Below, piece after piece: positions 382 to 50,711 of a stretch of DNA of 52,623 bases. How positions within the stretch are numbered: position 1 is the first letter of the stretch; every line of letters begins with the position of its first letter. The notes beneath the pieces were generated by a model that had not been told where the DNA came from, did not search any database, and saw nothing but the letters and a program-made list of their open reading frames with translations. The position numbers were made by a program, and so were the translations under genes. This DNA is from a virus (taxonomy: Duplodnaviria; Caudoviricetes): the IMG/VR virus record IMGVR_UViG_3300044730_000687, positions 1 through 52,623 of that record. The stretch is one strand, 5' to 3'.

Positions 382-849
382 TTACGCGAGAATCTTTCGC
401 GCACTCCAAATCCCGAGCAACGCGCCTCCGATCATGGCCAACACGCTGCCGTTGTCGGCGATCACGCCCGGATTGTGCGTGACGGGGTTAACGTAAGTCC
501 ACTGCCAGACTCCGGGTGACAGCAATCGGTAATTGCTGCCCTCGAATTCCGGAAAGATCAGCCGAAACGGCCGTTGCGTGAACTCGTCGTGCAGCGTATG
601 TCGATACGTCTGCCAATCGACGGTGATATCCACCACGTTACCGCCGGTAGCGTGCGCCCAGATGTCAGCGGTATTCCTGAAGGGTGGATCATTGGCGGTC
701 TGGGTGACCCGATCCCAGCCTTGCTGACCAGTCTCGGTGATGTTGAACACCAGCTTCTGGCTGGTCTGCTCGGTGATGTCGATTCTGACGGCCTGCGCTT
801 GGAACGCAAATGCCATTACCGTCGTGATGATTGCTGGTGTCTTGTTCAT
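382..849 (-). CDS. Exported surface protein with a VPDSG-CTERM/PEP-CTERM-like C-terminal sorting signal
   Basis: Signal peptide ending AQA; C-terminus IADNGSVLAMIGGALLGIWSARKILA (motif, TM helix, basic tail). Confidence 0.7.
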   Translation of the reverse strand: MNKTPAIITTVMAFAFQAQAVRIDITEQTSQKLVFNITETGQQGWDRVTQTANDPPFRNTADIWAHATGGNVVDITVDWQTYRHTLHDEFTQRPFRLIFPEFEGSNYRLLSPGVWQWTYVNPVTHNPGVIADNGSVLAMIGGALLGIWSARKILA

Positions 850-30201: not shown

Positions 30202-31332
30202 TTACCTCCAGCTCGTTTCCATCACGCTGGCAATTCGTCGATTCAGGTCGAGGCTTTGCTGCGCCACGTCCAGTTGCCTTCGTTGCACGTCAAGATTCGA
30301 TTGTGCGCCCCCTATGAAAAGGCCGATCCGTTGAAGCGCATCACTCGCCGGTCTTGCTGCCGCCTGTGACGCCGTCGCACCACCACCGCGCAACCCTTCC
30401 ACGTCAGCGGAACGTCCCGCCCTGGCTCTCCGTTCGGCCCTGGTTCGCGCTCGGTCCTGTTCGTCGTTCCGCTGCATTTGCTGGACGGCTTCGTCCGTGC
30501 TGTCCAATGCGCCTCGCGTTCCTCCAAGCCCCTTGTAGAACTCGGGATCTTTTCTCGCGTCGTAAGCCGTGATTGCCCCTTGGATGATTCGCTCGGTGAA
30601 GTTGACGCCTTTCTCCCACATTGAAATGACGCTTCCAACGACGCCAGCAAACCCGGCCTTCGCCTTTGCTGCCAGAATTCCAAACCTGTCGCCAACGTCG
30701 TCCAGTTGCTCGATCACTTCCGAGTCAATAATCGTCCCGAAGTCCACGGCTTCCTGTGCCAGCCCTGAGAACCCTTCGCGCAACATTGGGAGAACCTCGG
30801 ACCCCGACCTGCCAAGCAAAGCCATTGCCGCGCTCAACTCGGTCGCGTTGCCTGTCCCGTTCTCGATTGCGTTGCCAACCCGCACCCACAAGTCTTCCGC
30901 GTTCATGCTGCGAAGTTCTTGGACCGATATGCCAAGCTTTCGAAACGCATTCGCATCTTCGCCGCCACGATTCCCGACCGCCGCAACCTGCGACCGTTGC
31001 AGTTCACGAAACGCCGCCGTCGAAGCCCTCAGCGATGTCCCGGTTTTCTCGCCAGCGTACGCCAGCTTCTGCATGAAGTCGGTCGAAGCTCCGACCCGCT
31101 GGCTCATGTCGTTGATGCTCGATCCAAACTCAACAACCGACCGCACTTGATTCGCGAGGTAATCGACCGAGAACACCGCTGCCATTTGGGCTCCAATCCC
31201 GCGAATTGCGCTTGCCGGCAACTCGTTGATTGCCTTCCGGATCTTCCCAATCTCTCCGACCGCAGCCCTGGCAGCCGCGCCAAACCCCTCGTCGTTCCCA
31301 CGGAATCCTACTGTGAATTGCTCGTCAGACAC
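30202..31332 (-). CDS. Tail tape measure protein (short, 376 aa)
   Basis: Helical Ala/Gly-rich; MQKLAYAGEKTG, AFRKLGIS..EL, ALLGRSGSEVLPML. Confidence 0.85.
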   Translation of the reverse strand: MSDEQFTVGFRGNDEGFGAAARAAVGEIGKIRKAINELPASAIRGIGAQMAAVFSVDYLANQVRSVVEFGSSINDMSQRVGASTDFMQKLAYAGEKTGTSLRASTAAFRELQRSQVAAVGNRGGEDANAFRKLGISVQELRSMNAEDLWVRVGNAIENGTGNATELSAAMALLGRSGSEVLPMLREGFSGLAQEAVDFGTIIDSEVIEQLDDVGDRFGILAAKAKAGFAGVVGSVISMWEKGVNFTERIIQGAITAYDARKDPEFYKGLGGTRGALDSTDEAVQQMQRNDEQDRARTRAERRARAGRSADVEGLRGGGATASQAAARPASDALQRIGLFIGGAQSNLDVQRRQLDVAQQSLDLNRRIASVMETSWR

Positions 31333-31953: not shown

Positions 31954-32400
31954 TCAGGTCACCACAGCCAATGATGCCGGGGTGTCGCCATGCCTGGACA
32001 GCGGAAGCGTCAACTCCCAGTAGCCTCCCGCCTCGCCATTCAGCGAACCGCCGCCGTCGTAGTTCCACGTCCCATTGATTAGCGTCCCGTTCGTGCTGTC
32101 GAAGTTCGCCAGCGTCACGATTCCAAGCATGGTCGGAAACTGCCCAAGCTTCAGAGCTTCGGCCATCGTCGGGCTCCCGGCCGTCATCTGCACCAACGCC
32201 CGAATCGTGATCTTGTGCTTTCGATCACGCCCGGTTCGCGTCTTGGTGTAACCGTACGAATTGCGCGCCTCGTCAATCGTGAACTCGTCACTCAGACCAA
32301 AGCCTTGCGGGTCCGTCACGGTCGTGGCGCTTCCCGTGAAAGCCAGCGTTGAACCGTCGATTCCGTATGCGGCTACTACGCCTGTCATTACCTTTGCCAT
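31954..32400 (-). CDS. Putative major tail (tube) protein
   Basis: Thr/Gly-rich beta protein in the canonical position. Confidence 0.65.
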   Translation of the reverse strand: MAKVMTGVVAAYGIDGSTLAFTGSATTVTDPQGFGLSDEFTIDEARNSYGYTKTRTGRDRKHKITIRALVQMTAGSPTMAEALKLGQFPTMLGIVTLANFDSTNGTLINGTWNYDGGGSLNGEAGGYWELTLPLSRHGDTPASLAVVT

Positions 32401-32413
32401 ATCGTGTCCTTTT

Positions 32414-32881
32414 TTAGACCGTCGTTCCCGTAATCTTCAACTTTGCCACAAGTTGCACGTCATAGACGAGCCATGGCGTTTGCGATTCCAACGTAATGGC
32501 CGTCGAAGCTCCTTCGAACACGGCCCACGGACTCTCGGTCATGTGCGCATGGTCCAGTGTCGCCAGCACTTCCTCGGCGACGCGCAAAGCCGTCCAATGC
32601 GACACACGACTTGTCCCCCTGTGAATCTTGACCGACTCAAACACCTTGATCGCGCAGGCCACTTCGCGCAAGACGTGGTTCACGCGCACCATCGTTGGCG
32701 TCGAGATGAAAGCGGCAATCCCATCTCGCGACAAACGCTTGTCTATCTCGCTTTCAAAGTCGCCTTCGTCCTCCGTGATAAATGCGACTTTCTCCGCCAT
32801 CCAACGAGCATCGTTTTGCAAAGTGCTTTGCATCCACGTCTGCACTGACCTCATGACGCCTGTCTCGGGTTCACGTACCAC
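32414..32881 (-). CDS. Putative tail terminator/completion protein
   Basis: Position upstream of the tube gene; about 150 aa. Confidence 0.55.
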   Translation of the reverse strand: MVREPETGVMRSVQTWMQSTLQNDARWMAEKVAFITEDEGDFESEIDKRLSRDGIAAFISTPTMVRVNHVLREVACAIKVFESVKIHRGTSRVSHWTALRVAEEVLATLDHAHMTESPWAVFEGASTAITLESQTPWLVYDVQLVAKLKITGTTV

Positions 32882-33149
32882 GGTTTGCCTCCTTCACGTC
32901 CTTGGCGTCTTGAAGGTCGCCGTTCAACAGGCTCCGGAACGATCCGCATGCCGCACCAATTAGCGCCGCGATCAAAATTGCCAAATCGTAGGCGTATTGC
33001 ACGGGATGCTGAACCATGGCGTTGAACCGTTCCGCTCCCACTTGGGACAACCATGCCGTTACGACGGCTGACAAAGCAATCCCCTCATACGTGATCAGCG
33101 TCAGAACCGCCCACTGCCATCGATTGACGAAGTTTCCTAAGGCTTTCAT
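32871..33149 (-). CDS. Holin-like membrane protein
   Basis: 92 aa, two hydrophobic segments, charged C-terminus. Confidence 0.6.
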   Translation of the reverse strand: MKALGNFVNRWQWAVLTLITYEGIALSAVVTAWLSQVGAERFNAMVQHPVQYAYDLAILIAALIGAACGSFRSLLNGDLQDAKDVKEANRGT

Positions 33150-33763
33150 GTCGCGTATGGGGTCCCGTCGTTGTCTTCCTGCGCTTCTCCAAGCTTGTGC
33201 GGAGCCACCTTTTCGACGACCCCAAACATCCGCAGGATCTTCCCGTCTCTGTTTTTGCTGACGTAGGTGTGGGCCTTCGCGATGAATCGCTCGCCGGTCT
33301 TTCTGTTGTGAACTCTGTAGGTTTCAAGCCACGGCATGCTTCCATTCAATGCGGCTCGCCAGTTGTTTGCTACCCGACTTCGCTCCTTGGCCCCTTCCAT
33401 TCCCTCAAGCCATCCGTTTCCGAGCATGCTGTGCGCGTCGAGACCGAACATGTCCGCAAGTGTTCTCGAAACGTACACGCAGTTCCCAATCTGGTCGCAT
33501 TCAAACGTTGCATCTCCTCCGCAGAAGTCAGCCCTGACTCGCTGGCCATCGCGCAACACCACGAGATCATCCTCAATAGCTGTAACCCGATCGGGAAGCG
33601 TCATGCCGCCGCTGCCAATGATCGCACTGTGAATCGCCGTCAGTTTCCGAATGCTGCTCCAAACCCATACAGCGGCACCTCCGACAACAGGATAGACAGA
33701 CACCACAACGAACTGCTTTACAAGCTCGGAACCGAATGCGTGCTGTAGAAATTCGGCGATCAT
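33146..33763 (-). CDS. Membrane-anchored PAS-domain protein
   Basis: TM helix, GSGGMTLPDRVTAIE linker, then FECDQIGNCVYVS..LADMFG...LGNGW...RV..NW..AL...YRV...RDGKILRMFGVV (PAS_3/PAS_4-like). Confidence 0.85.
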   Translation of the reverse strand: MIAEFLQHAFGSELVKQFVVVSVYPVVGGAAVWVWSSIRKLTAIHSAIIGSGGMTLPDRVTAIEDDLVVLRDGQRVRADFCGGDATFECDQIGNCVYVSRTLADMFGLDAHSMLGNGWLEGMEGAKERSRVANNWRAALNGSMPWLETYRVHNRKTGERFIAKAHTYVSKNRDGKILRMFGVVEKVAPHKLGEAQEDNDGTPYAT

Positions 33764-33782: not shown

Positions 33783-34115
33783 TTACTCGCGAGTCAGGTT
33801 GCGAACTACAACGGTGAGAACGTTCTCCAACCGTGCAATTCGTTCGTCGCGCGTTCCTGTTCCAAAATCCCGAACGACCCTCCGTTGCTTTTCCAGTCGG
33901 GTATTGTCGTCGCGATTATCCTCCTCCTTTTTGAGTTGGGCCAATTCTTCAGGCAGCAACTCCCTTCCGCCAATCCAAAGCCACGTTGTGCCGTTGTATG
34001 AACAATTGGAAACAACCCACGTCGGACAATCAATATAGCCGTCCGGTGGAACATCTCCGCTGTAAATCTGTGTGGAGATGACTAGCGAGTCCTTGAGCAG
34101 CGCGGAGTTTTTCAT
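33783..34115 (-). CDS. Hypothetical protein (possible fibre chaperone)
   Basis: Coupled to the GH gene; C-terminal RIARLE coiled coil. Confidence 0.6.
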   Translation of the reverse strand: MKNSALLKDSLVISTQIYSGDVPPDGYIDCPTWVVSNCSYNGTTWLWIGGRELLPEELAQLKKEEDNRDDNTRLEKQRRVVRDFGTGTRDERIARLENVLTVVVRNLTRE

Positions 34116-37100
34116 GGTGCGTTAAGTGTCCCGATGGTCGCCGTCCCGATGGTCGCGTTCGGCGGAGTCGACGCAACTCCGTTCGTGACTGCGAATGTGA
34201 TTCCAGAAAGCTCTCCGGTGTTCCCATACTTGTCTCGCGCCTGCACATCTAGCCGATAGACTCCGTTGACCAGATTCGTGAACTCCGCGACTGTACCCTC
34301 GGCCCAGTTTTCCCATGGAGCAGATGGGCCGAGCCGGAATCGGCTCAACACGTTGCTCCTGTAGAGCGGAGTGTTCATCACCGTGTCGTCTAACGCGGTC
34401 CATTTGATGAACGTGTCAGTCAGCCCTTCTCCGTTCAGTGCGGACAGCGGGTACGAGTCCATAGTGATGACTGGCGGATTTGTGTCAGCCCGCGACGCGA
34501 CAACCGCATTGGTCAGCAGAGCAAACATAGCGGCAGGACTGATGGTGCGGCTGACGAGGTACGTGGCCACGCGCCCAATCGGGATGGCTGCGCTGTTGCT
34601 TGTCAGCAGATTCCCGAATACGTCAAGCTGGCCGAAGTTCGTGCTGCCCAGCGTCAAGCTTCGGTTCGTTTTGTCTTGGGTCCAGATGATTGCGGTAGTG
34701 AGATTGCTTTTGCCGAAAACGTAGCAGTCGGTTTTCGGTATGTTGGTCACCGAGGCAGTGTACGAAGGCGGGTCTATCAGCCTCTTGAATTGGAGCATCG
34801 CAGCAAGCTGTGGCCGCGCTTCATCGTAGAAATCCCACACAGGGGAGCTGGTGTCGATTGCTCCGCCGCGAATGTAGGAGCTGTATCGGGCGTCGTAGTA
34901 GTACACCCCCGCAAACCCATGACCCAAGCTGCGAGCCAGCACCGCCAAGGCACGCATCGTCGTGTTGTAACCAGCCCTGTCCATAACCTCGTGCCGAAGC
35001 ATTTCGTACGTCCACGCAGCTCCGGTCTGAATTCCGACATTGTATGTCCGGCAAGGACCGTTGTCGTAGACGCCGGATTCCGAGTTGTACACAGGTTTCC
35101 CGTAGTTGATCCCAAGTTGCTGCCACTGCTGATACCTGGGTCGATCCGTAACGTCGTCATTCATCAACATGACGACGTTGCCGCCTGCCGGGTAGAGATG
35201 GCACGACAGCCCGTGGACGTTGGAGAGTGTGTTCGACGGAAGGATGCCGAGAAACCCGTGAGCGACGTTCGTGTCAGCCATGCCGCCGCATGTCACGTAC
35301 AGCGCCCCGGGATAGGCTGCGTGTAGCGCATTCTCTTCTGTTATGGCGATGTCGCGCAGATTCGCTGCGGTCAGGGTCGAGTGTGGCTCATTCCGCATCT
35401 CATAAAATGCGATTCGGTCAGTGTACCGGCCGGCCACTCGATTAATGTAATCCCAAAGAAGGTTTGTGTGGACCATCGCGCCGCTGGAGACGGCGAATGC
35501 AGGTATCTCAGCATTCGTCCACAAAGTCATCCAGATGTCCTGTTCGTCGTGAGCGCCAACTCGCCAGTCGGTTGACTCGAACGTGAAATTGTTGTCTGTC
35601 GCCTCGATGCTCGTCCATCGCGCATACCCGCCAGGGGACAGAGTTCGGGTCCCGCGAAATCCAAGGACCTTGTTTGTCGCCACCGCGTCTTCGGCAGTCT
35701 GGCTGTGAATGTGGACAATCCCGTTGGTTGCGTCGCTCGACCAGACCTTCGCGAACATAGTCTCGTCCTGTTCTGGATGAGACGTTGACCTGCTCACGAC
35801 TCGGTAGTGGCCGAATTGAATCCACGGAGGAAAAGTGATTGTGTTGGTGGCCTTTCCGGGTGGCACTGACCCATTGAACTCGCCGCTGAAAATGGGCACT
35901 CCGAACTGATGGTTCGTCTGCCCGTAGGCGATGTAAGACCAGTTGAAATTTGAGGAACTCGAACCGTAGTTGTACGTGACGAGATCCATCGACACGGTCT
36001 CGTTGTCGAACCACAGATTGCCATTTCTCGGTGTGGTGAGAACAAACTCTACCCCGTGCTTTGGAGCCCACGGTGTGGCGGTTGCCCCCTCCTCAAGTTG
36101 GACGTCGTCGATGTAAAATGAGGTAAGCGTGACCGATTCGATCGTGAGCTGCCACTCAGCCGTGGGGCGGTCGCTTGCCCAAAAATTCGTCTGGAACCGC
36201 ACCCAGTTCGTGGTCCCCGGTGCGGTCCAATTCCATGAGTACCCCACGTTCGTTGTGCTGGCCGGAACGTAGCGATTCGTCCAAGCCAATGACGTCATCC
36301 TCGCAGTCACCGTTGACGCCAAGGCTTTGGCGTAAAAGCTCAACGTGTACTGACGAGTTCCAGGTCGCAGCTTGATAGGGCTGTTGTAGATCGCGAACCG
36401 AGCTTTACTGTCATTGATCCATGCAATCGTTGATCCAGTCACCGCGTTGTTGGTCGTTGCTACATTCGACTTCAAGAACGTAGGCTTGAAGAGATTGCTG
36501 TCGGTCTGCGAGTTTCTCGCATACATCCAGCGTGGCTGCCAACCCAGCTCAAACGAAGCGTTGCCAAGTTTGTTTCCATGGATGGCGTTGGTCTGAACTG
36601 GAGGCACCGAGTAATCGTAGAATGCGTCCATGTAGGCCGCCGTGCCGATCGGGTCAGTCGTTGCCGGTGCGGCGACGTTGGTGTTTGACGATAGCGCGAA
36701 CGCCTCAAGATAGAAGTCGTGGGCTTGGCTGGGTGCAGCGAGCCACGTAAACCGTACCTGGGCGTTGGTGAACTCCGTGGTCGCGACGTAATTGGTTCCG
36801 ACGTAGCCGGTGGCCTGGCTGAAATCTATGTTCGCCCAAGCGTTTGTTCCCAAGCGAAACTCCGCCACCCCCAGTGTGTTCGGTGGCTGAAAGTTTCGTG
36901 TCCAGGCTTTTAGGAAGGCCCTGTACGTCCCCGGCCCGCCCGACGGCCCGTCGATCGTTGCGGTTACATTCGTGGTCGCAGATGTGGTCCGGAAATACCA
37001 CGAGCCATACGTGAGGTTGACGTCCGACTTGGACCAGTTTGTGTTCTGCTGAGATAGGTCAAAGTCATCCTTCGTCCAGATCCGCAAGCCTGGAATCTGG

Positions 37101-37147
37101 GCCAGACATGAGACCGATGCGAACAGGATTGCAAGAAATAGCTTCAT
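34112..37147 (-). CDS. Signal-peptide-bearing clan GH-A glycoside hydrolase with CBM-like and Ig-like domains
   Basis: MKLFLAILFASVSCLA/Q; NASFE..YTLSFYAK..IDDVQLEEG (CBM4/9-like); YEMRNEP and PVYNSESG catalytic-like motifs. Confidence 0.82.
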   Translation of the reverse strand: MKLFLAILFASVSCLAQIPGLRIWTKDDFDLSQQNTNWSKSDVNLTYGSWYFRTTSATTNVTATIDGPSGGPGTYRAFLKAWTRNFQPPNTLGVAEFRLGTNAWANIDFSQATGYVGTNYVATTEFTNAQVRFTWLAAPSQAHDFYLEAFALSSNTNVAAPATTDPIGTAAYMDAFYDYSVPPVQTNAIHGNKLGNASFELGWQPRWMYARNSQTDSNLFKPTFLKSNVATTNNAVTGSTIAWINDSKARFAIYNSPIKLRPGTRQYTLSFYAKALASTVTARMTSLAWTNRYVPASTTNVGYSWNWTAPGTTNWVRFQTNFWASDRPTAEWQLTIESVTLTSFYIDDVQLEEGATATPWAPKHGVEFVLTTPRNGNLWFDNETVSMDLVTYNYGSSSSNFNWSYIAYGQTNHQFGVPIFSGEFNGSVPPGKATNTITFPPWIQFGHYRVVSRSTSHPEQDETMFAKVWSSDATNGIVHIHSQTAEDAVATNKVLGFRGTRTLSPGGYARWTSIEATDNNFTFESTDWRVGAHDEQDIWMTLWTNAEIPAFAVSSGAMVHTNLLWDYINRVAGRYTDRIAFYEMRNEPHSTLTAANLRDIAITEENALHAAYPGALYVTCGGMADTNVAHGFLGILPSNTLSNVHGLSCHLYPAGGNVVMLMNDDVTDRPRYQQWQQLGINYGKPVYNSESGVYDNGPCRTYNVGIQTGAAWTYEMLRHEVMDRAGYNTTMRALAVLARSLGHGFAGVYYYDARYSSYIRGGAIDTSSPVWDFYDEARPQLAAMLQFKRLIDPPSYTASVTNIPKTDCYVFGKSNLTTAIIWTQDKTNRSLTLGSTNFGQLDVFGNLLTSNSAAIPIGRVATYLVSRTISPAAMFALLTNAVVASRADTNPPVITMDSYPLSALNGEGLTDTFIKWTALDDTVMNTPLYRSNVLSRFRLGPSAPWENWAEGTVAEFTNLVNGVYRLDVQARDKYGNTGELSGITFAVTNGVASTPPNATIGTATIGTLNAP

Positions 37148-40100
37148 TTGTACTGGACAGCAATCTCGTTGAGAGTCGTATCCAGCGATGTCGAACCCGA
37201 AATGACCGCATTCCGCACCGACGCGCCAGCCGCCAAGCCCCAGGGAATATTCGATGAGTTCGTTACAACCGCCACATCATTGTGGTAGCCGATCATATTT
37301 GTGCCGTTAACATGGACACCAAGCTTGTACCACGTGCTTGGTGTGTACGTGATTCCGGTGTCCACCCACGTAACGCCCACGCTGTTCGAGACGCAGCCAA
37401 ACGCCCACGTCACCGCACCGCTGGCGATGTTCGTTTGGTGAATCCAGCCTGCAAACGTCGCTGGACGATTTGTGTCGCCCGTAGCCAGAGAATTGAATCC
37501 AACCTGGAGTGAGTAAATATTGGTCAGTACATTGCCAGATGTTTTGTCCGGCGTACGAATATCAGCGCCGAAGAACAACTGGTTAGTGCTGTTCTGCGTT
37601 GGGATTGCAAACGCACGATTGTCATACCAGCCAAAACACGGCGCTTGATTCGTGTTCTGCGCCCGCATGATGCGAATGCCTTGCCGGCCCGCACCGTTAG
37701 TCGCGCTGGTGTATTGGAACGATCCGCCATTGTTGGCACCGCTCGATCCCATATCACCGGATGTGACCGCCGTATTCAGGTTGAACAAATCATCAACGAA
37801 TAACTGTGATCCACCGATGATGCCTGTCACGAACATCTGAGGCGCGACACTTTCGAGTCGTTCATACACAGCACGCTCAGTCGCGACGTTAGTGCTGCTT
37901 TCCCAGCTTGGCCCGTACGGGTTGTACGAAACGATAAAGTTCGTAACCACGAGGCTGCTCATGATCACGTCTGCAAACGTGGCAGTGCCCGTGAAGGTCG
38001 GCGATGCGATGGTCGAGTACGTTGCGGCGGCGTCGTTGGAGCGAAGGATTGAGGATGGGATTCGGAGAGCGTCAATCGTTCCGGTGAGCAACGTTGCATC
38101 AACCGCCGTTATGTTGGCCGCGCTTGTTCCGTTCGTTCGAACGAAGCTGATGGAGGCCGAGTTGACTAGGTTGGAAACTGCGTTCGTCGCGCTCCCGATT
38201 GTGATGTAACCGGAACCTCCGCCTCCGCTTCCGCTCGCCGTAATCATGATCTTCTTATTCGAAGCGTCGTAGGCGAGACTAATGTTGTTTGACGAAACGA
38301 TTGAGTTCGTGAGCGCAGCCCACTGAACATCAGCAAAGTCGCTGATCGTCGAAGCAGTCTGCGTTCCCGTGTGATTTGCCCTGGAAATCAATGCTTGATA
38401 GGCTGCCGTCGTTAGCTTGTTCGTCCCCAAGCTGCTTGCAACAACCGAGTAGGTATAGTTCGATCCGCTTGTATTCCCCTCGATTTCCGATCCGTCGAGA
38501 AGGTTTAGCGTCGTCTTTTGAACTCCTTCGACCCACAGGGCCGTTCCGTTCGTTGGGCCGCCTCCTCCGCCTCCCGTAATCCCCATCGCGTTGTAAAGGT
38601 TTGCCAGCGTCATGCCGATACCTTCGCGAACTCCGGTTGATGGGTCGGCGGCGAATCCGTAGACGTGCGTCAGTGTGCCGGTGGAAGCCAGCACAGACAG
38701 AGGGCGCTCGAAGTAAATCCCGTTGTTCGTCCCGAAGTGCGCGAGGTTGTTTGCTCCCTTCTGGATCGTCAGCATCGCGTCCGCGTTTGCCTTCAAGACG
38801 AAAGCCTGCGTTGATCCGATTGCCCCTCCGGTAATCAGTCCGTTGAAGTTTGAGAGGACGTTTCCGAGCTTCACGGCTCCAGTTAACTCAGAGAAGCCAG
38901 CCACGTTCAGCCCGTTCGTGATGCTCAGCGAACCGTAAAGCGTGCCGCCGTAGTCCGGCAGGTACGGGTACACGTATCGCGTCCAGGCTGAATTGCGGTA
39001 GGTGAACGTGTCCTCTGTGCCAGCGCGAATCACTGTGTTGATGCCAGTGAACGTGACGGTGTTGGTGCCGGTGTTTCGGATCGTCAGCGTCGTGCCTGGG
39101 TACGTAAACCCGCCAACGCTGAACGTCATGTTGCTGGATCCTGTGATCTCCACCCGACTCGGCAGCAGGTCGCCGGGAATTGAAAGGTTTGTCGTCGCGC
39201 CCGAGACCGTGAAGTTGGTGGTGATAACCGAAAGCGCCGGCTGACTCTGCGTCCAAAGCTTAATCGGGACATTCGCGGGAAGCTCGTAGTCGCTGGCAAT
39301 GTCGGTCGGCGCGGAGTGGATCTCCCAATCGCGGACCAAGGAATTGGTCAGGCTCAAAGCCTTACCACTGTCCGATGTGATGGCGTTGTCCCGCCACCGG
39401 AACCCATAGAGCGTGGTGCCATTCGTGTCACGCAAAGCCCATGTCCCGCCCGTAAAGTCCTGGTAGAAGTAATTGCGGGTGACCGACAGAGCGCTGTGCT
39501 GGCCCGGTCCAAGGGCGATCGGGTTCTGAGTGAATACCTCAAAGTAATTGTGGTCGATGCTGTTGTTGATTTGACCTGAACCAACAACGCCTTCCGGATA
39601 AATTCCGTAGCGCAGACTCTGAAAAACATTCGCTGTGAAGTCGTGGTTTGCCACGCCCCCTTTCCAACGAATACCGATCGCATTGGTAAATCCTGGCGAC
39701 TCAAACTTGTTCCGAAAGATTGAATTTGCTGTCGCTGAAACACCATTAAGATCCAGCCCGATGTCAGAGTTGTTTATGAATGTGTTGAAGGTGATCAGAT
39801 GTCCGTAGTTCTGATTGCCAGTCAGCAACACGCCAACGCCGTTCGCCCTGTAGAAGTCATTTCCAACGATCTTGAACTCCGTCGAATTGTTGATGGTCAG
39901 GATGTTTGTCGCGGTGTTGTTCGCGTCGAACCAAAGATTTTCGATGGTGACGTGCCGCATCGTGTGAAGCGTGAACATCGTCGATGCTGACGTGCCGCGA
40001 ATGATGGACCGAAGCCCCGGCTGGCCTCGCAACGCCAATCCACCAACGAGCCCGGTTCCCGTGAAGCTTACGCTCGAAACCAGAATCGTCCCAACCGGGA

Positions 40101-40503
40101 ACTCAAGCGTCGGGACGTTGTTGGAGTAACAGTAGTTGATCGCGGCTTGCACTCCTGCCGTTCCGTCTGTCGATCCGTCGCTCGCAACTCCAAACCATTC
40201 GGCGCGTTGAGGAATAGCAAGCCTGTCAGCCGAGACCCACTTACCTGAAACTGATCTGTTCGTTAGGTAGTGAACACCGTCGTGCGACTGTGTTGCGGAT
40301 GGATCGTTCCGAAATGTTCGCGGTTGGCTGAATGGGACGGTTGCGCTGTAATTCCTGACTTGAATCTCCTCGCCAACAACGGGGCGTCTGGAGGTCAAGT
40401 CGGCAATCGTCGCGACGCTGTTAACTGGATTCATCTGCTGGCCAAAAGCCGCGATTGAAACGCACGCGCACAGCAGGCTAAGGAGTAGTGTCTGGATTCT
40501 CAT
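37144..40503 (-). CDS. Signal-peptide-bearing tail spike/fibre with a pectin-lyase-like beta-helix
   Basis: MRIQTLLLSLLCACVSIAAFG/Q; WFGVASDGSTDGTAGVQAAIN..LEFPVGT; fibre motifs RANHTGTQTASTISDF and ASPTFTGT. Confidence 0.85.
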   Translation of the reverse strand: MRIQTLLLSLLCACVSIAAFGQQMNPVNSVATIADLTSRRPVVGEEIQVRNYSATVPFSQPRTFRNDPSATQSHDGVHYLTNRSVSGKWVSADRLAIPQRAEWFGVASDGSTDGTAGVQAAINYCYSNNVPTLEFPVGTILVSSVSFTGTGLVGGLALRGQPGLRSIIRGTSASTMFTLHTMRHVTIENLWFDANNTATNILTINNSTEFKIVGNDFYRANGVGVLLTGNQNYGHLITFNTFINNSDIGLDLNGVSATANSIFRNKFESPGFTNAIGIRWKGGVANHDFTANVFQSLRYGIYPEGVVGSGQINNSIDHNYFEVFTQNPIALGPGQHSALSVTRNYFYQDFTGGTWALRDTNGTTLYGFRWRDNAITSDSGKALSLTNSLVRDWEIHSAPTDIASDYELPANVPIKLWTQSQPALSVITTNFTVSGATTNLSIPGDLLPSRVEITGSSNMTFSVGGFTYPGTTLTIRNTGTNTVTFTGINTVIRAGTEDTFTYRNSAWTRYVYPYLPDYGGTLYGSLSITNGLNVAGFSELTGAVKLGNVLSNFNGLITGGAIGSTQAFVLKANADAMLTIQKGANNLAHFGTNNGIYFERPLSVLASTGTLTHVYGFAADPSTGVREGIGMTLANLYNAMGITGGGGGGPTNGTALWVEGVQKTTLNLLDGSEIEGNTSGSNYTYSVVASSLGTNKLTTAAYQALISRANHTGTQTASTISDFADVQWAALTNSIVSSNNISLAYDASNKKIMITASGSGGGGSGYITIGSATNAVSNLVNSASISFVRTNGTSAANITAVDATLLTGTIDALRIPSSILRSNDAAATYSTIASPTFTGTATFADVIMSSLVVTNFIVSYNPYGPSWESSTNVATERAVYERLESVAPQMFVTGIIGGSQLFVDDLFNLNTAVTSGDMGSSGANNGGSFQYTSATNGAGRQGIRIMRAQNTNQAPCFGWYDNRAFAIPTQNSTNQLFFGADIRTPDKTSGNVLTNIYSLQVGFNSLATGDTNRPATFAGWIHQTNIASGAVTWAFGCVSNSVGVTWVDTGITYTPSTWYKLGVHVNGTNMIGYHNDVAVVTNSSNIPWGLAAGASVRNAVISGSTSLDTTLNEIAVQYK

Positions 40504-40991
40504 TGTCGTCGCGTGTAGACCAATCCTGCCGCGTTCACGATGTAGTTGTCCCCATCGTCGGTCCCGGTGTCACCCTTGTTCTCCCACCAGCCGTAATCCT
40601 CGTTTGTTTCGGACTCGCGCACCCAGATTAGGTCGTACGTTTTACGGTTTAGTCGGACCTCTGCGACTGTTTCGAAATATCCAATCACAGCATCTGCCTC
40701 CGTTACGGTTGTGAGAATGTCTTCCAATACCGCATCTTCATCTGGCATCGCCATGTATGCCACGTTTCGCACTGCACCAACTCGGCACTCGAATCGGTAC
40801 AGTCCAGGCACAAGATAAAATCCTGCCGGCACAATACCGCCAGCGCCAGTCGTGAACCACAGCTCTTGCCCCATTACGACGCCATTGGTCGTTTTGTGCG
40901 GGTAGTACAACCTCTGCAACAACACTTCCTTGCCAACGAGAGCCGCCTCTTGCTGGTCCAGAACATGCCCTGACAGTAGGTACTTTGCCAT
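40500..40991 (-). CDS. Putative spike anchor/adapter protein
   Basis: Transthyretin-like N-terminus; C-terminal FETVAEVR...TDDGDNYIVNAAG..Y.R resembling tailspike N-terminal domains. Confidence 0.6.
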   Translation of the reverse strand: MAKYLLSGHVLDQQEAALVGKEVLLQRLYYPHKTTNGVVMGQELWFTTGAGGIVPAGFYLVPGLYRFECRVGAVRNVAYMAMPDEDAVLEDILTTVTEADAVIGYFETVAEVRLNRKTYDLIWVRESETNEDYGWWENKGDTGTDDGDNYIVNAAGLVYTRRQ

Positions 40992-40994
40992 GCG

Positions 40995-41585
40995 TCACGC
41001 CTTCTTCAGTCGCCAGTCTTTGTAGTAGTCCGCAAGTGCAATTCTGAACCGCTTCACGATGCTGGCCTTTTCCGGAATGCTTCGGGGCCATGGAGCTTGA
41101 TTCACTCCTTTGGACAGTAGGTAGTATTTCACAAGGCTACGTCCCTTCTTGCCTGCAAGGAATGCTTCCCCACGCACCCGCAGAATGAAAAGCTTTATGC
41201 CGAGTTGCTTCTCCAAGTCTCGCGCTCTTGTGCCATGCGCGTCCGGATGCGTCGGGATCGTCAAGGCCCTGGCTCGCACCGGAACAATCGGTCCGCCATT
41301 GATCTTCTGACGAATGCGCGTGTCCCGCACCATTACGGTCACGACGCCGTTTTTGATCTTGGGCTGGGCTTCGACCGAGTTCGAAATCTGCCGCCAGAAG
41401 TGAGTCCTGATGCTCCCCGCGCTGTAGAACGAATTCGGCTCGGCCGCGTCCTTCCGATTCCAGAACAGCTTGAGCATCGCAATGACCGCTTGCCCGGCCC
41501 TGCGGAGCGCAGCGGTTCTCCGTTGCGGACTCGCCATGTCGCGAAGCCGTTCCGTGACCTTGTTCGGTTTGACGTGAAGCTTCAT
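40995..41585 (-). CDS. Mu gpG-like virion morphogenesis/tail completion protein
   Basis: Basic; GGPIVPVRARALTIP motif. Confidence 0.7.
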   Translation of the reverse strand: MKLHVKPNKVTERLRDMASPQRRTAALRRAGQAVIAMLKLFWNRKDAAEPNSFYSAGSIRTHFWRQISNSVEAQPKIKNGVVTVMVRDTRIRQKINGGPIVPVRARALTIPTHPDAHGTRARDLEKQLGIKLFILRVRGEAFLAGKKGRSLVKYYLLSKGVNQAPWPRSIPEKASIVKRFRIALADYYKDWRLKKA

Positions 41586-42355
41586 TTCATCACGCCGCGA
41601 ATCACGCCACGCGCAATCTCGTAACCGGGTCCCAAGTCCTTCAACAACTGTTGCGCCAATTTCTCGTCCTTCATCACGTTCGACTGCGGAGGTTCCATCG
41701 GCGGAATGCGCCTTGCCGATTGGGTTGCTGGGAAGCGAAGTCCAAGCTTCTCGCCTCGCGCACGCGCCATTCGTCGAACGCTCATTCCAGAGTTGTAATC
41801 GAACGGTGGGTAAGGCGTCCCGAACGCACTGATCGTTTTCCAAATCTTGTCGTTCACCGGAGCCACCATCTTGCCCTGGCGCAAAGCACGCCCAGCTTCC
41901 TGCCATCGCGTAGGCCAATCCCTCGGTTCCTGCCGCAATTCCTTTCGGTACATTTCCCAGAACGGATACTCGTCTAGCGCCTTTTGCGCGTCCACGAACT
42001 GACCGTATCCACGCGCCATGTCCACGTTCGTTCGCACAATCAAATCCAGTCGCGCCGTGCTCGTCAGGTCTTGGATCGTGCCTTCCTTACCTTTCGGTGC
42101 CTTGTACCGCGAACGCTCCACCGTCTCGCGCAACTTCTCGCGTGCCGCGAACGGAGAAATTTTCTTGTTCAACACGCCAAGCGTTACATCTCGGATCGCT
42201 TCGAGGATCTTGCCATTGCTGACTTTTGCGCTGAACACGGCCTGTTGCCGGATGCTCGTTCGTATCTCGCCAAGTTCTTGCGATGAAAGCTTCGTCTTCA
42301 GCAGCCCGACTGCTTCCATCTTCTTGACTGCAACTTGGAGCGTTCGGCTTGCCAT
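41582..42355 (-). CDS. Mu gpF/SPP1 gp7-like head morphogenesis protein
   Basis: AVFSAKV, RLDLIVRTNV..ARGYGQ, PYPPFDYNS. Confidence 0.85.
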   Translation of the reverse strand: MASRTLQVAVKKMEAVGLLKTKLSSQELGEIRTSIRQQAVFSAKVSNGKILEAIRDVTLGVLNKKISPFAAREKLRETVERSRYKAPKGKEGTIQDLTSTARLDLIVRTNVDMARGYGQFVDAQKALDEYPFWEMYRKELRQEPRDWPTRWQEAGRALRQGKMVAPVNDKIWKTISAFGTPYPPFDYNSGMSVRRMARARGEKLGLRFPATQSARRIPPMEPPQSNVMKDEKLAQQLLKDLGPGYEIARGVIRGVMK

Positions 42356-42357
42356 AC

Positions 42358-42843
42358 TCAGATTGCGCTTCCTTCCTGATCGGCTCGCGTCATCTCGGCC
42401 ACTTCGCTCGTCGCCTCGTTGCTGTACTCCATCGGGTACACCGGCCCGTCGTCGTCCTCCGGATTGTCGCTTACAGGAATCTCTGGCCCTTTGCCTTCCG
42501 CGATGTCGCGCAACGTGCGCTCCGCCTGTTCCCACGTCGCCTTTCGGACACCGCTCGCGTCCATCACTTCCCCAAAGCTTCGCCCCATGATGCGCCAGCA
42601 AATGATTGCTAGGGCCACTTCCTTCATGCTCGCCGGCAGTGTCCCGGCCGGTCCCATGCTGTTGGAGTTTCGCTTGTAGGCCGCGATGTATCCACGCACG
42701 TACTCGACAACGTTCGTCGTGATGCCGGCCACAGGGTCCACCTCGGTCCCGTACTTTGCCGCGTTTCGGTACGCCTCAAGCTCGCGCCCGGCCAAAACGG
42801 TGCGGATGTCGGCTTCGCTAATCGTTGTCCAAGTCGCTGCCAT
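42358..42843 (-). CDS. DUF1320 / Mu gp36-like head-tail adaptor
   Basis: VRGYI...LPASMKEVALAI...A.R.L.DIAEGK. Confidence 0.8.
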   Translation of the reverse strand: MAATWTTISEADIRTVLAGRELEAYRNAAKYGTEVDPVAGITTNVVEYVRGYIAAYKRNSNSMGPAGTLPASMKEVALAIICWRIMGRSFGEVMDASGVRKATWEQAERTLRDIAEGKGPEIPVSDNPEDDDGPVYPMEYSNEATSEVAEMTRADQEGSAI

Positions 42844-42864
42844 CGTGTGTCCGTTCGTTTTAAC

Positions 42865-42897
42865 AAAAATGGGGCGACACCCTACGGCATCGCCCCA
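42865..42897 (-). terminator. Rho-independent terminator after the capsid block
   Basis: TGGGGCGA...TCGCCCCA plus TTTTT. Confidence 0.8.
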
Positions 42898-42937
42898 CAA
42901 CCCTATCCCAACCCACAGCTATCTCAGGCGAAGCGCG

Positions 42938-43441
42938 TCACTGGATTGTCGGACCGACAAGAGTCTGCCACGGCGGCTTTGCCGAAATTGTGACCGTGAT
43001 GTTCGTCGCGATGTTCGTCGCTGCGTTGCCGTATCGGTTGAACAGAAGGTAACGAGCACTTCCGACGTTGATGTTGGTGCACCAAGTGCGAAGCAAGGCT
43101 CCATCAATCGAGATACTCAACGTGGTGAAGGCCGTGGTCTCGAACGTGGTTCCGTCGATGCTTCGATGAATCGGAATCGTCAACGCTGCCGATGCGTTTG
43201 TGGAAACGTTCCGTGCGCTGATCTGGACGAAAAGATCGTCCTGCTTCCGAACATCCACGATTTCCGTATTGGTCGCCGTGGTACTGGCCGCAATGCTCGT
43301 CGGCACGTTGACCAGCGGTGCCGTGGTGCTCTGCGAGAGCGACGTGGTGGGAGCCTGAGCCATGACGGCCATCGGCAACACAAGCGCCAACACGAAAGCC
43401 CATGCCCCCGTGAACGCCATCGAAAGTTTGCGAGTGCTCAT
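42938..43441 (-). CDS. Signal-peptide-bearing capsid-decoration-like protein
   Basis: MSTRKLSMAFTGAWAFVLALVLPMAVMA/Q; SIDGTTF..ARYL jelly-roll-like pattern; lies before the capsid-block terminator. Confidence 0.7.
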   Translation of the reverse strand: MSTRKLSMAFTGAWAFVLALVLPMAVMAQAPTTSLSQSTTAPLVNVPTSIAASTTATNTEIVDVRKQDDLFVQISARNVSTNASAALTIPIHRSIDGTTFETTAFTTLSISIDGALLRTWCTNINVGSARYLLFNRYGNAATNIATNITVTISAKPPWQTLVGPTIQ

Positions 43442-43485: not shown

Positions 43486-44421
43486 TTATGCCACCGTCAC
43501 GTTGACTCGCGCACCAGCAGCCGAGTTCACGGCCTTGATGTCGAAGGACCAATCGAACCCGAACACCTCGCCTCGCCCGTCCTGGGTCGTATAAGCTCGG
43601 GGTCCAAGCCACTGGCCAGTCTGGCGGAAAGTCTTCAGCCACGACGGGTCGGTCCGGGTCGGGATGCTCGACGCCACGAAAATCAGGACGCCGGTATCCA
43701 GCAGGTAGCTGTAGCTCGGGGTGACACCTTCGCCGGCCGTGTCGGCGACCACGTTGCTCACCATGATCTTCGGGTTCCCGATGAACAGGCTCGACGCCAT
43801 CTCCTCGCTCACGTTCGGGATCGCCTTGTTGCCAGCCGCAACGAATCGGGAGCGAACCACGGGAGCGTTCTTGAACCGCTTCCAGGCGGTCGCACCGAAA
43901 AGCAGGCGCGTCTCCATGTTGCCACCGTACGGGACGTTCTGCCGAATCGTGAGAATCCCGGTGTCGATACTGTCCACGATGTCGGTCGTGGCGCTGTTGA
44001 CGTTCACATCGGTCCCGGCACCAGCCGTGGCGAGCGCCAAGTCAATGGCACCCTTCTCGTGACTAAGCATCGCGATTTCGGCCGCGAGGTCAGCCGCTTC
44101 CATCGCGGCATTTAGTCCCACGAGACGCCCTTCCTGAATCTCCGAAGCGTCCAGCGGAACGTCCACACCGTTGATCGTGCAACTGTAGGTGCCGTCGTCG
44201 GCACCAAACCCAACCTGAACGGCCGGGTTGCCCGGGGACCGGCGCGTGTCCGGCAGCCGGAACCGGCTCTTGGCGTTGTAGACCTTGTACCGCCCGACCT
44301 TCGACGCGACCGAAACAGTAGGGGCGAGGAAGTCAGCGACGCGACCAATGCGAAGCTGCGATGCGTTCTGCGCGTATTCGATCAGGACCGGATTTGCGCT
44401 GAGATCAGAAAGTAGGCTCAT
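43486..44421 (-). CDS. Major capsid protein (HK97 fold)
   Basis: NPVL...VADFLAPTVSV...GRYKVY; 311 aa; follows protease and decoration genes. Confidence 0.85.
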   Translation of the reverse strand: MSLLSDLSANPVLIEYAQNASQLRIGRVADFLAPTVSVASKVGRYKVYNAKSRFRLPDTRRSPGNPAVQVGFGADDGTYSCTINGVDVPLDASEIQEGRLVGLNAAMEAADLAAEIAMLSHEKGAIDLALATAGAGTDVNVNSATTDIVDSIDTGILTIRQNVPYGGNMETRLLFGATAWKRFKNAPVVRSRFVAAGNKAIPNVSEEMASSLFIGNPKIMVSNVVADTAGEGVTPSYSYLLDTGVLIFVASSIPTRTDPSWLKTFRQTGQWLGPRAYTTQDGRGEVFGFDWSFDIKAVNSAAGARVNVTVA

Positions 44422-50108: not shown

Positions 50109-50191
50109 GGCACGTAAACGATGAGTGCCACGCGGGCGTTGGTTGCCGCCAGGGCATTGACATCCAAAACATTGTTGCGCTTTGTGCTCAC
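50105..50191 (-). CDS. Small 28-aa peptide (not in the ORF track)
   Basis: MSTKRNNVLDVNALAATNARVALIVYVP; GTGA overlaps at both ends. Confidence 0.45.
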   Translation of the reverse strand: MSTKRNNVLDVNALAATNARVALIVYVP

Positions 50192-50439
50192 TTCGCGCCC
50201 TCCACGATCACCGGCACCCCGTGCTGGTCCACGCCCCGGGTCTTGGTCCATCCGCAGTACAGTGTGAGAAACGCCGATGCCGCATGCGCTGCGTCAACCT
50301 CTTGCTTGGATGGCTCCCTGAAAGCCGTGCTGGCGCGGTACATCTCGTACGTTGTCCGGTACGCCCCGCACCGCTGGTCTTTGGTTGTTCCGCAGCCGAC
50401 GAGCAGCAGGGCGAGGAGGAGTGAGAGTGAGCGGATCAC
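50188..50439 (-). CDS. Lipoprotein
   Basis: SLSLLLALLLVGC lipobox; two further Cys. Confidence 0.7.
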   Translation of the reverse strand: MIRSLSLLLALLLVGCGTTKDQRCGAYRTTYEMYRASTAFREPSKQEVDAAHAASAFLTLYCGWTKTRGVDQHGVPVIVEGAK

Positions 50440-50711
50440 GGCTTCCTCCCTTCTGCCCGGGCGATGGCGGCCCGTGCTGCATACCAAGCGAGGTGATCAT
50501 GTTCGGTGGTTGCCATGATTTCCTTCAGTGCGGCCAAAAGCTCCGGAGCCGTTGCGATCAGATTGCAGTTGGCTTCAGATTCCTGATCTCCAGGGTGATG
50601 CACAACCGCCAAGCGCTTTCCCCTGCCAAACACAACTCGTGATTCTGCGTCGAGATCGTTGTAGTCTCCACGGTCGGCTAGCGACCAAGGCCCCGGCGTA
50701 TGTTTTCTCAC
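50436..50711 (-). CDS. Conserved phage protein (HTPGPW...AN..LIA.APELL family)
   Basis: Recognisable motif. Confidence 0.85.
   Translation of the reverse strand: MRKHTPGPWSLADRGDYNDLDAESRVVFGRGKRLAVVHHPGDQESEANCNLIATAPELLAALKEIMATTEHDHLAWYAARAAIARAEGRKP

Follow-up and report, generated by a model that had tools for sequence, protein, structure and literature searches.

Three genes in the late virion block of a lake-water phage begin with apparent signal peptides, and the question raised by this locus is whether their products are exported and, if so, whether they join virions or act on the infected cell. The window, i.e. the whole stretch of DNA analysed (52,623 nucleotides), is a complete 52.6-kb genome with terminal repeats. 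Shine–Dalgarno motifs are unused in this genome, which makes starts hard to call and is consistent with a Bacteroidota host. The sole isolate match was a weak one, to the major capsid protein (MCP) of an Akkermansia phage (23.6% identity, E 1e-3). The original prediction had singled out the three genes by n-, h- and c-region signal peptides ending before a Gln, and their coordinates and N-termini were confirmed:

37144..40503, (-): tailspike-like protein ('the spike'), 1119 aa, recognized by Foldseek and AF2; predicted signal peptide 1-21 (nt 40441-40503).
34112..37147, (-): probable clan GH-A glycosidase ('GH'), 1011 aa; predicted signal peptide 1-16 (nt 37100-37147).
42938..43441, (-): small jelly-roll protein ('the small protein'), 167 aa, predicted to be exported; signal 1-27 (nt 43361-43441) and a predicted cleavage site ahead of Gln28.

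Signal peptides were scored by a strict rule of our own, consisting of an n-region with K/R, an uncharged h-region of 8-18 residues and an AXA-like site. This rule flagged 8 of the 67 minus-strand ORFs of the window, in a greedy ORF set that does not contain the small gene. The eight comprised the spike, GH, two membrane-protein-like ORFs, two probable false positives and the following two genes, for the first of which no family match was found:

382..849, (-): fourth protein with a signal-peptide-like N-terminus, 155 aa, with a C-terminal hydrophobic segment.
50188..50439, (-): lipobox protein (..LLVG before C), which by shape only forms a spanin-like pair with the N-terminally anchored product of 50708-50983.

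The spike signal has 21 residues and ends in ..AAFG, followed by QQ; that of GH has 16 residues (..SCLA, then QIP) and that of the small protein 27 (..AVMA, then QAP). All three show the hallmarks of Sec export and signal peptidase I cleavage, with a charged n-region, an h-region of approximately 8-18 residues and small residues at -1 and -3. A check proposed with the original prediction, namely whether homologues keep the signal peptide, gave a positive result. The signal was kept in 11/11 members of the spike family (the query and 10 matches), where the Gln at +1 (Q22) is invariant in the alignment. It was also kept in 6/6 members of the GH family (the query and five full-length matches), with Gln+1 in all GH relatives; a sixth match, P0014, did not enter the count, being a copy of the window's own protein truncated at the N-terminus. 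For the small protein, the strict rule recognized a signal in 95 of 115 matches and a lenient rule in 107 of 115, and in six of the remaining matches the signal was internal, behind an over-long gene call.

The signal regions diverge faster than the mature parts, or equally fast (37.5 vs 43.4% conserved for the spike, 42.1 vs 62.6% for GH and 27.1 vs 26.4% for the small protein), and in each family the region is still hydrophobic. Such conservation across homologues is not what a chance pattern would give. Gln+1, present in all three window proteins, is allowed in 74 of 95 small-family signals compared with 13 of 62 when the same rule was applied to an Akkermansia genome sample; the nearest relatives of the small protein (P0020-P0026) do not have it. 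The mean for Bacteroidetes given in the paper on the Q-rule is 71% (PMC5837995).

The translational coupling claimed for the spike and GH genes is real. ATGA stop/start overlaps were confirmed at the 163aa/spike, spike/GH and GH/110aa junctions, and the spike and GH starts are fixed by this coupling to their neighbours. Taken together, the N-terminal sequences make Sec-type export of the spike, GH and the small protein highly probable.

The spike consists of a conserved N-domain (residues ~22-100), a beta-helix (~100-400), a beta-sandwich (~440-510), a fibre-like region (580-970) and a jelly-roll tip (970-1119). The beta-helix was modelled by AF2 at a pLDDT of about 70-90 over residues 100-400, and the best Foldseek matches of the model were the Sf6 tailspike (E 2e-6, TMt 0.43), Phi92 gp150, phi29 gp12, HK620 and CBA120 TSP3. 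An A3 profile search of the PDB returned an AmsF-type beta-helix start (E 0.006), and all three phage fibre motifs quoted in the original prediction are present. On the strength of the model, the spike appears truly tailspike-like in fold. Residues 22-90 are conserved in the family, yet were modelled at pLDDT <50, and in P0010-P0012 the distal parts are swapped behind the conserved N-domain. The order of signal peptide, short conserved N-domain and variable body would suit a docking domain.

The tailspikes of Sf6, P22/HK620, Phi92 (gp150) and CBA120 (TSPs), as well as phi29 gp12, likewise have a beta-helix behind a short N-terminal domain, and classical tailspikes also swap distal modules behind a conserved N-terminus. 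To our knowledge, a Sec signal peptide is present in none of these classical tailspikes (Sf6, P22/HK620, Phi92, CBA120, phi29 gp12), whose folding and assembly take place in the cytoplasm. The spike differs from them in its invariant signal, its conserved Gln+1 and the long fibre and lectin-like tip behind the helix. A literature search found no report of tailspike-type proteins with signal peptides and no published case for tailed phages. A comparable layout is described for the mosaic adhesive trimer (MAT) fibres of Bdellovibrio, in which a signal peptide is followed by a conserved beta-rich N-domain and a variable body resembling phage tail fibres (PMC10769870). These proteins show that fibres of the phage type can undergo export and reach maturity beyond the cytoplasm. 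MAT fibres are, however, chromosomally encoded and placed on the predator's own surface or vesicle, whereas the spike lies in a phage late operon, and the likeness is one of layout.

GH has a predicted catalytic region at ~480-800 and a Y_Y_Y-like Ig domain at 936-980. PF00331 (GH10) scored 17.4 bits against a Pfam cut-off of 22.1, and Y_Y_Y was also below its cut-off; profile matches to GH10 in the PDB were weak (E 0.007-0.8), and Atlas neighbours carry GH5/GH39/GH42/GH10 families, which is a lead only. The motifs NEP (586-588; N586-E587-P588) and SESG (689-692; S689-E690-S691) are invariant in the six sequences, and are candidate sites of the two catalytic Glu expected in this clan, the acid/base in NEP and a nucleophile. 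GH is probably a clan GH-A glycosidase, an assignment made from sub-threshold matches.

The AF2 model of the small protein (pLDDT 87) has a lone low-confidence helix at 7-26, followed by a confident 8-strand beta-sandwich. Its fold matches were CBM36 (Z 9.8), XepA (Z 9.6) and the BC2L-C lectin, and superposition on XepA residues 35-143 gave an rmsd of 2.8 over 106 residues at 18% identity. The small protein is a jelly-roll (CBM/TNF-like) module, which is a generic fold. The small gene has the following neighbours:

43486..44421, (-): major capsid protein, 311 aa (phrog_1005 major head protein, E 2.5e-30), without a signal peptide.
42869..42898, (-): intrinsic-terminator-like hairpin, 13-bp stem followed by a U run, which closes the unit of MCP and small gene.
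42358..42900, (-): candidate head-tail adaptor resembling Mu gp36 (PF07030 at E 1.2e-4, which does not reach the Pfam cut-off), with a true start probably near 42843; a 161-aa equivalent is found in L002.

An equivalent hairpin lies 3′ of the small gene in L002 and also in L003, there with a different sequence, which places the small gene in one transcript with the capsid gene and a conserved terminator 3′ of both. Of the claim that the small gene encodes a decoration protein, the adjacency to the MCP gene and the shared terminator stood; the label has no further basis.

The spike and GH genes are flanked by two coupled genes, and envelope-directed features lie just beyond:

40500..40991, (-): 163-aa protein without a signal peptide, coupled to the spike by an ATGA overlap; candidate adaptor or export chaperone.
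33783..34115, (-): 110-aa protein without a signal peptide, joined to GH by an ATGA overlap; last gene of the mobile cassette, with a homologue of 48% identity that follows GH in L012.
33146..33763, (-): 205-aa protein with a PAS domain (PF08447, E 1.7e-8) and one N-terminal hydrophobic segment (14-32).
32871..33149, (-): 92-aa protein, holin-like in shape only, which has a charged tail in addition to two hydrophobic segments; no family match was found for it.

The four genes from the 163-aa protein to the 110-aa protein have counterparts in L012/L013 at 35, 84, 65 and 48% identity, respectively. When the other 23 window proteins were queried in L012/L013, only the protease matched, and weakly (35% over 66 residues, E 1.7e-4). 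These comparisons show that the spike, GH and the two flanking genes are a mobile cassette, passed between phages with unrelated heads and tails. Homologues of the 163-aa protein precede a signal-bearing spike in L002, L012/L013 and L003, and in all a short protein without a signal precedes the spike in four phage backbones. In L014 the gene upstream of the spike encodes 319 aa, matches a tail-fibre N-part (phrog_9851, E 2.4e-5) and has a C-terminal motif in common with the 163-aa protein (hhalign E 8.9e-4, probability 23%). The L014 spike occupies the usual place of a receptor-binding gene, last before the lysis genes. Genes for a lipoprotein, a TM protein and an amidase-like protein lie 3′ of the spike in L014, and lipoprotein and TM genes do so in L003. 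The window also holds a separate tail module without signal peptides:

30202..31332, (-): tape-measure-like protein, 376 aa (phrog_9483, E 1e-14, and seven further tape-measure PHROGs; 8 of the 10 matched PHROG families are tape-measure and the other two are of unknown function).
31954-32400 (148 aa, tube-like by reading only), 29301-30200 and 25137-28703 (1188 aa): further genes of this module.

The explanation that we prefer, at a probability of roughly 0.45, is that the exported proteins act late on polysaccharide in the envelope or capsule of the infected cell, and not as pre-assembled virion parts. Sec signal peptides would be removed by signal peptidase I before the Gln in all three precursors, so that the mature spike, GH and small protein would form in the periplasm or envelope of an infected diderm host and not in the cytoplasm. 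The spike would act as a beta-helix depolymerase of the tailspike type, extended by a fibre and a tip resembling a lectin. GH would probably be a glycosidase of clan GH-A, and the small protein, a jelly roll of the sugar-binding type, would be produced at levels similar to those of the capsid protein. A late attack on polysaccharide, encoded beside holin-like genes, might clear the exit and destroy receptors on debris, and lysis would free the three proteins without their pre-assembly into virions.

This explanation is supported by the envelope-directed neighbours (the TM-PAS and two-TM 92-aa proteins here, and the lipoprotein, TM and amidase-like genes of L014 and L003), and by the passage of the cassette between backbones with no detectable relationship among their remaining virion genes. 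The separate signal-less tail module supports it as well, as does a Pfam scan of 50 window proteins that detected no endolysin domain. There is also a precedent in XepA of PBSX, a late, phage-encoded beta-sandwich protein that crosses the membrane by export and does not occur in particles (PMC6834076). XepA, compared here together with YomS, ranks near the top of the small protein's fold matches; it is a two-domain pentamer from a Gram-positive lysis cassette, whereas the small protein consists of one domain and adjoins the capsid gene. The modelled likeness is that of a common jelly roll, tied with CBM36, and need not imply kinship.

Two other kinds of exported phage protein bear comparison. 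Sec-exported and SAR endolysins are lytic enzymes that reach the envelope via host Sec before holin action. No muralytic domain was found in the spike, GH or the small protein, and unlike endolysins these have the sizes and folds of polysaccharide depolymerases. The Lom and Bor morons of lambda are signal-peptide proteins encoded in the late or structural region, as autonomous units expressed from the prophage; the spike and GH genes, by contrast, are coupled to their neighbours and conserved as parts of a structural-type cassette. Of the Sec-exported or SAR endolysins, fOg44 Lys44 and P1 Lyz are named in PMC6834076.

Against action in the envelope stand the best matches of the beta-helix, which are phage tailspikes, and the docking-type layout; the position of the spike, always behind a short signal-less protein, with a tail-fibre-like counterpart in L014; the coupling of the genes inside a late structural operon; and the place of the small gene in the capsid transcription unit, as with decoration proteins. 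In addition, Pfam and NCBIfam found no T9SS C-terminal sorting domain (Por_Secre_tail-type) in the spike, GH or the small protein; the enzymes would therefore be periplasmic in a Bacteroidota host, where a capsule-degrading role is less obvious.

Several of these observations favour instead a completion of virions outside the cytoplasm, a tentative alternative that we consider rather unlikely, in which the exported spike and small protein, and perhaps GH, mature in the periplasm and dock onto particles that are otherwise complete when the membrane is breached. The spike would attach via the signal-less 163-aa adaptor, by then already carried on the particle, and the small protein to the expanded capsid. 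The tailspike-like fold (Sf6, Phi92, phi29 gp12, HK620), the conserved N-domain right behind the signal with distal swaps in P0010-P0012, the 163-aa family in three backbones with its fibre-like L014 equivalent and common motif, the site of the L014 spike and the conserved terminator are all in accord with it. Furthermore, P22 tailspikes are able to bind completed particles in vitro, as are decoration proteins. The partners would, however, be kept in separate compartments until lysis and then diluted; the phages that share the cassette show no detectable kinship in their other virion proteins; a full signal-less tail module with a 1188-aa distal protein is present; the small gene is absent from the Akkermansia phage, a distant relative with a cultured host; and the literature search yielded no published tailed-phage case. 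In a more explicit version, which we regard as doubtful, signal-less adaptors of the 163-aa family would sit on cytoplasmic particles, while the spike, GH and the jelly roll, the last at capsid stoichiometry, would be exported by Sec, trimmed by host enzymes to pyroglutamyl N-termini, and snap on only at the inner-membrane breach. If true, this would be a two-compartment assembly line, which is not known for Caudoviricetes. Of the proposal that the proteins are exported and then join particles, export is upheld by the conserved signals and coupled starts, and no observation places the proteins on particles. The alternative offered with it, that the envelope is remodelled for egress or exclusion, is no less likely than extracytoplasmic assembly.

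It is improbable that the genes are moron-type cargo, changing the host surface for superinfection exclusion or host fitness in a manner unrelated to lysis or virions. Phages of P. gingivalis do carry five Q-rule signal-peptide genes of unknown function, in which signal peptidase I cleavage exposes a Gln, read as an adaptation to host secretion (PMC10367356, PMC5837995). The products are described as probably modifying the host outer membrane; they are neither tailspike-type proteins nor glycosidases, and the genes are not coupled to a structural operon (PMC10367356). The mobility of the cassette between backbones and a GC skew at 34-40 kb unlike that of the rest of the genome are consistent with cargo. 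Against it count the translational coupling to late structural genes, the tailspike architecture and size, the lack of integrase or lysogeny genes among the scanned window proteins, and promoter-like sites that were not above shuffles (2 found vs 4.8 expected, in a sigma-70-type scan that may not suit the host).

An ordinary cytoplasmic tailspike, its hydrophobic N-terminus bypassed by a downstream start or its precursor retained late, is equally improbable, for while in-frame starts exist behind the signals (spike ATG at codon 24, GH TTG at codon 21, small gene GTG at codon 46) in a genome whose starts are hard to call without Shine–Dalgarno motifs, Met24 occurs in only 3/11 spike-family members, the upstream ATGs are fixed by the ATGA coupling, and a useless AXA-Gln leader would not persist across homologues of 22-84% identity and ~100 small-family clusters.

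The finding means that these three late proteins of the phage are probably made outside the cytoplasm, the compartment in which its particles are assembled.

The lack of a signal peptide is routinely taken as a mark of phage virion proteins. The original prediction held that three virion-module proteins of this phage begin with Sec signal peptides, and their N-termini, each with n-, h- and c-regions, were borne out as described. These genes and their neighbours are as follows.

47795-49198, minus strand, large terminase (head module)
46104-47639, minus strand, Mu-type portal (head module)
44926-46107, minus strand, Mu-I-type protease (head module)
43486-44421, minus strand, major capsid protein, MCP (head module)
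42938-43441, minus strand, small signal-peptide protein, 167 aa
42869-42898, minus strand, terminator-like hairpin
40500-40991, minus strand, 163-aa protein without signal peptide
37144-40503, minus strand, spike, 1119 aa
34112-37147, minus strand, GH protein, 1011 aa
33783-34115, minus strand, 110-aa protein
33146-33763, minus strand, PAS protein with one hydrophobic segment
32871-33149, minus strand, holin-like protein, 92 aa, two hydrophobic segments

The window, of 52,623 bp, is an entire virus record of IMG/VR, carries direct terminal repeats and has a completeness rating of 100%; every gene is on the minus strand. GenBank phages showed no nucleotide similarity to it, and no tRNA genes were found in the window. 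Its sequence is present in lake-water metagenome runs, eight of which contained at least half of the sampled words; three of the eight are a possible source. No RNA dataset was among the runs listed.

Downstream of the MCP gene the order is the small gene, the hairpin, a Mu gp36-like adaptor, two head-completion-type genes, the 163-aa gene, spike, GH, the 110-aa gene, the PAS gene and the holin-like gene. A separate tail module follows, comprising a 148-aa tube-like, a 376-aa tape-measure-like, a 299-aa and a 1188-aa gene, and no signal peptides were found among its proteins. The translational coupling that had been predicted is real: ATGA stop/start overlaps join the 163-aa gene to the spike gene, spike to GH, and GH to the 110-aa gene. 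GC skew is near zero at 34-40 kb, compared with about -0.1 across the rest of the genome.

Signal peptides were called with a strict rule devised by the authors (a K/R n-region, an uncharged h-region of 8-18 residues and an AXA-like site). This rule flags 8 of the 67 window ORFs, spike and GH among them, and two of the flags appear to be false. Conservation is a stronger argument than these flags, and the check that had been proposed, retention of the signal in related phages, came out positively for all three proteins. All ten database relatives of the spike (22-84% identity) start with an n/h/c segment, and the Gln directly after the predicted cleavage site (Gln+1) is one of only eight invariant columns in the 11-sequence alignment. 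For GH, signal and Gln are retained in 5/5 full-length relatives (65-79% identity), a sixth match, which is the window's own protein in truncated form, having been left out. In a library clustered at 50% identity, a search with the small protein gave 115 relatives at E values of at most 1e-3; a signal peptide was identified in 95 of them by the strict rule and in 107 by a lenient one. In six longer members the signal is internal, behind over-extended gene calls, and three others (P0041, P0124 and P0125) are apparently truncated at the N-terminus. In P0036 and P0078, the hydrophobic segment does not begin with Met and is directly preceded by approximately 70 extra in-frame residues at the N-terminus; these two proteins may have a signal anchor instead of a mis-called start.

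The signal regions are no more conserved than the 60 residues that follow them (mean pairwise identities of 37.5 versus 43.4% for spike, 42.1 versus 62.6% for GH and 27.1 versus 26.4% for the small protein), yet the hydrophobic core is kept in every case despite this drift in sequence, which is what genuine signal peptides would show. AlphaFold places residues 7-26 of the small protein in an isolated helix of low confidence, followed by a confidently modelled sandwich. Judged from these sequence comparisons, export of the spike, GH and small proteins is very probable. An additional protein of 155 aa (382-849, minus strand) has a signal-peptide-like N-terminus and a C-terminal hydrophobic segment with basic residues behind it; it gave no family match, and looks like an anchored exported protein.

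The spike model (mean pLDDT 53) is reliable only at residues ~100-510 and 970-1119. Phage tailspikes are the best fold matches of its beta-helix (Sf6, E 2e-6; Phi92 gp150, phi29 gp12, HK620 and CBA120 TSP3), and the C-terminal domain matches galectin/PL7-type jelly rolls. The N-domain (residues 22-100), in a low-confidence part of the model, is conserved even where the body differs (relatives P0010-P0012); a region search with residues 22-140 for further carriers gave only four proteins, all already known. Complex prediction pairing spike residues 22-140 with the 163-aa protein gave a score of 0.00, without controls, and hence no verdict. Single-sequence searches of spike and GH against the PDB yielded nothing useful.

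GH is a probable clan GH-A glycosidase, for which all support is sub-threshold: the Pfam matches to GH10 (17.4 bits; cut-off 22.1) and Y_Y_Y (22.7 bits; cut-off 26.6) fall short, GH10 profiles from the PDB match at E 0.007 and weaker, and language-model neighbours carry the GH5, GH39, GH42 and GH10 families. Its NEP and SESG motifs are invariant. The small protein is modelled as an eight-stranded jelly roll (pLDDT 87), matched best by CBM36 (Z 9.8), by the PBSX exported protein XepA (Z 9.6, 18% identity), by further CBMs and BC2L-C, a TNF-like lectin, and by numerous fibre knobs and uncharacterised phage proteins. In the Atlas it lies closest to viral clusters; tblastn gave no match to it in phages, and P0062, a distant member of the family, had no match in genome or viral contigs. 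Two candidate relatives without signal peptides were rejected: the 134-aa gene after the capsid gene of the related locus L012 is in register but not significant (hhalign E 0.085), and the window's own 137-aa gene does not align.

Periplasmic O-glycosylation was considered as a reason for export and set aside, the Bacteroidetes sequon D[ST][AILVMT] occurring once each in spike and GH against approximately 3.9 expected from shuffles. None of the three proteins showed a T9SS sorting domain.

The hairpin 3' of the small gene is strong and GC-rich, with a U run. An equivalent is situated in the related loci L002 (~2975-3005; MCP 89% identical) and, with a different sequence, L003 (~11557-11596; MCP 66%). 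The small gene would thus be made from the transcription unit of the capsid gene, and the two are probably one high-expression unit. The block from the 163-aa to the 110-aa gene (33783-40991) recurs in L012 (7504-14382) and L013, with identities of 35, 84, 65 and 48%. Among the other 23 window proteins, only the protease matched these loci by tblastn, and weakly (35% identity over 66 residues). On this sequence comparison the block is considered a mobile cassette, being common to phages whose other structural proteins gave only that one match.

A protein of the 163-aa family precedes a giant protein with a signal peptide in three phage backbones. In a fourth (L014/L015) the spike is 40% identical and retains its signal; the 319-aa protein upstream of it matches the N-terminal part of a tail-fibre PHROG (E 2.4e-5) and weakly shares a C-terminal motif with the 163-aa family (hhalign E 8.9e-4, probability 23%). 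It is apparent that the spike adjoins envelope-directed genes in the window, L014 and L003, and in the latter two they come immediately after it. These are the PAS protein, with its transmembrane segment, and the holin-like protein in the window; signal-peptide, lipoprotein and transmembrane genes with an amidase-like gene (phrog_5107, E 1e-11) in L014 (12874-13838 and 13840-15588); and a signal-peptide protein, a lipoprotein and a transmembrane protein in L003 (17444-19810).

The PAS protein (PF08447, E 1.7e-8), whose hydrophobic segment is N-terminal, is a candidate membrane sensor, unusual for its lysis-type position, with the exported enzymes on one side and the holin-like gene on the other. 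Pfam recognised no endolysin domain in the 50 window proteins scanned. Near the terminase end, a lipobox protein (50188-50439) and a small, N-terminally anchored protein (50708-50983), both on the minus strand, look like a candidate o-/i-spanin pair, far from the holin-like gene. Elsewhere on that strand, two PAPS-reductase-fold genes (5126-6421 and 15158-16033), of which one has DUF3440, are located close to a ParB-N-like gene (6759-7484) and may be DNA-modification genes. In the replication-side half, a 200-aa protein (14580-15182) matches the Pfam family 'Spike protein P1, second jelly-roll domain' (PF22465, 26.5 bits; cut-off 26). A further minus-strand gene (13061-13678) encodes a pentapeptide-repeat protein fused to DUF5758.

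Gln+1 recalls the Q-rule of the Bacteroidetes, for which the published analysis gives a mean Q-value of 71%, with 2 to 77% in other FCB members and the PVC phyla not analysed there (PMC5837995). By the strict rule, 74 of the 95 small-family signals allow Gln+1; the closest relatives of the small protein (P0020-P0026, L002 and L003) are without it. The genome does not use Shine-Dalgarno motifs, and its leaders are A-rich. Because the only isolate-linked hint to the host was a capsid match to an Akkermansia phage (23.6% identity), 400 kb of an Akkermansia genome were sampled. SP-like starts were found in 62 of 299 ORFs, only 13 of the 62 allowing Gln+1. This speaks against a host like Akkermansia but does not count against other lineages of PVC or FCB. 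The MAG containing L003 carries the label Gammaproteobacteria, although the contig, at 60-69% GC, seems to be viral for the most part. Neither a taxonomy nor another MCP match came from the 30 relatives listed for the MAG, and a 16S fragment on a different contig of the bin was left out of the assessment.

The favoured reading, to which a probability of about 0.45 is assigned, is that the exported proteins act in the envelope of the infected cell. The cassette would be a set of exported polysaccharide enzymes which, with an abundant exported lectin-like protein, would, late in infection, remove glycans of the capsule or envelope or destroy receptors. Parallels are provided by Sec-exported endolysins and by XepA, described as late, exported and not in particles (PMC6834076).

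The original prediction, that the three proteins are real virion parts meeting the particle only at lysis, is rather unlikely, and two-compartment virion assembly, the categorically new reading, slightly more so. The tailspike fold, the conserved spike N-domain, the partner gene without a signal peptide, the canonical receptor-binding-gene position of the L014 spike and the coupling of small-gene expression to the capsid speak for virion parts. Export of phage-type fibres is also feasible, since the Bdellovibrio MAT fibres mature outside the cytoplasm and resemble the spike in having a signal peptide, a conserved N-domain and then a phage-type fibre (PMC10769870). A cytoplasmic spike isoform made from a downstream start is a weak proposition, as only three of the 11 spike relatives have Met24.

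Searches of the full-text literature, supplements and subscription journals apart, found no account of a tailed-phage spike or fibre bearing a signal peptide. Q-rule signal peptides have been noted in Porphyromonas gingivalis phages, on genes of unknown function (PMC10367356), and a study of phage DGR-target proteins reports no detectable transmembrane regions or signal peptides in them, which its authors took to support phage origin (PMC6199706). Phage-encoded Sec substrates as such are already known.

A tailspike-type depolymerase family retains a host-adapted export signal across several phage backbones, which is a warning for annotation pipelines, since a protein called 'tail fibre or spike' can be one that is exported, and Gln+1 suggests itself as a possible host-lineage marker for uncultured phages. 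If the proteins act in the envelope, they would make up a cassette of a new kind, assembled from tailspike parts, for phage release or receptor destruction; if they are on particles, the textbook picture of the tailed-phage assembly site would change. Either way, the small protein represents a large family of secreted, phage-encoded jelly-roll proteins that had no name before and comprises at least 115 clusters at 50% identity.
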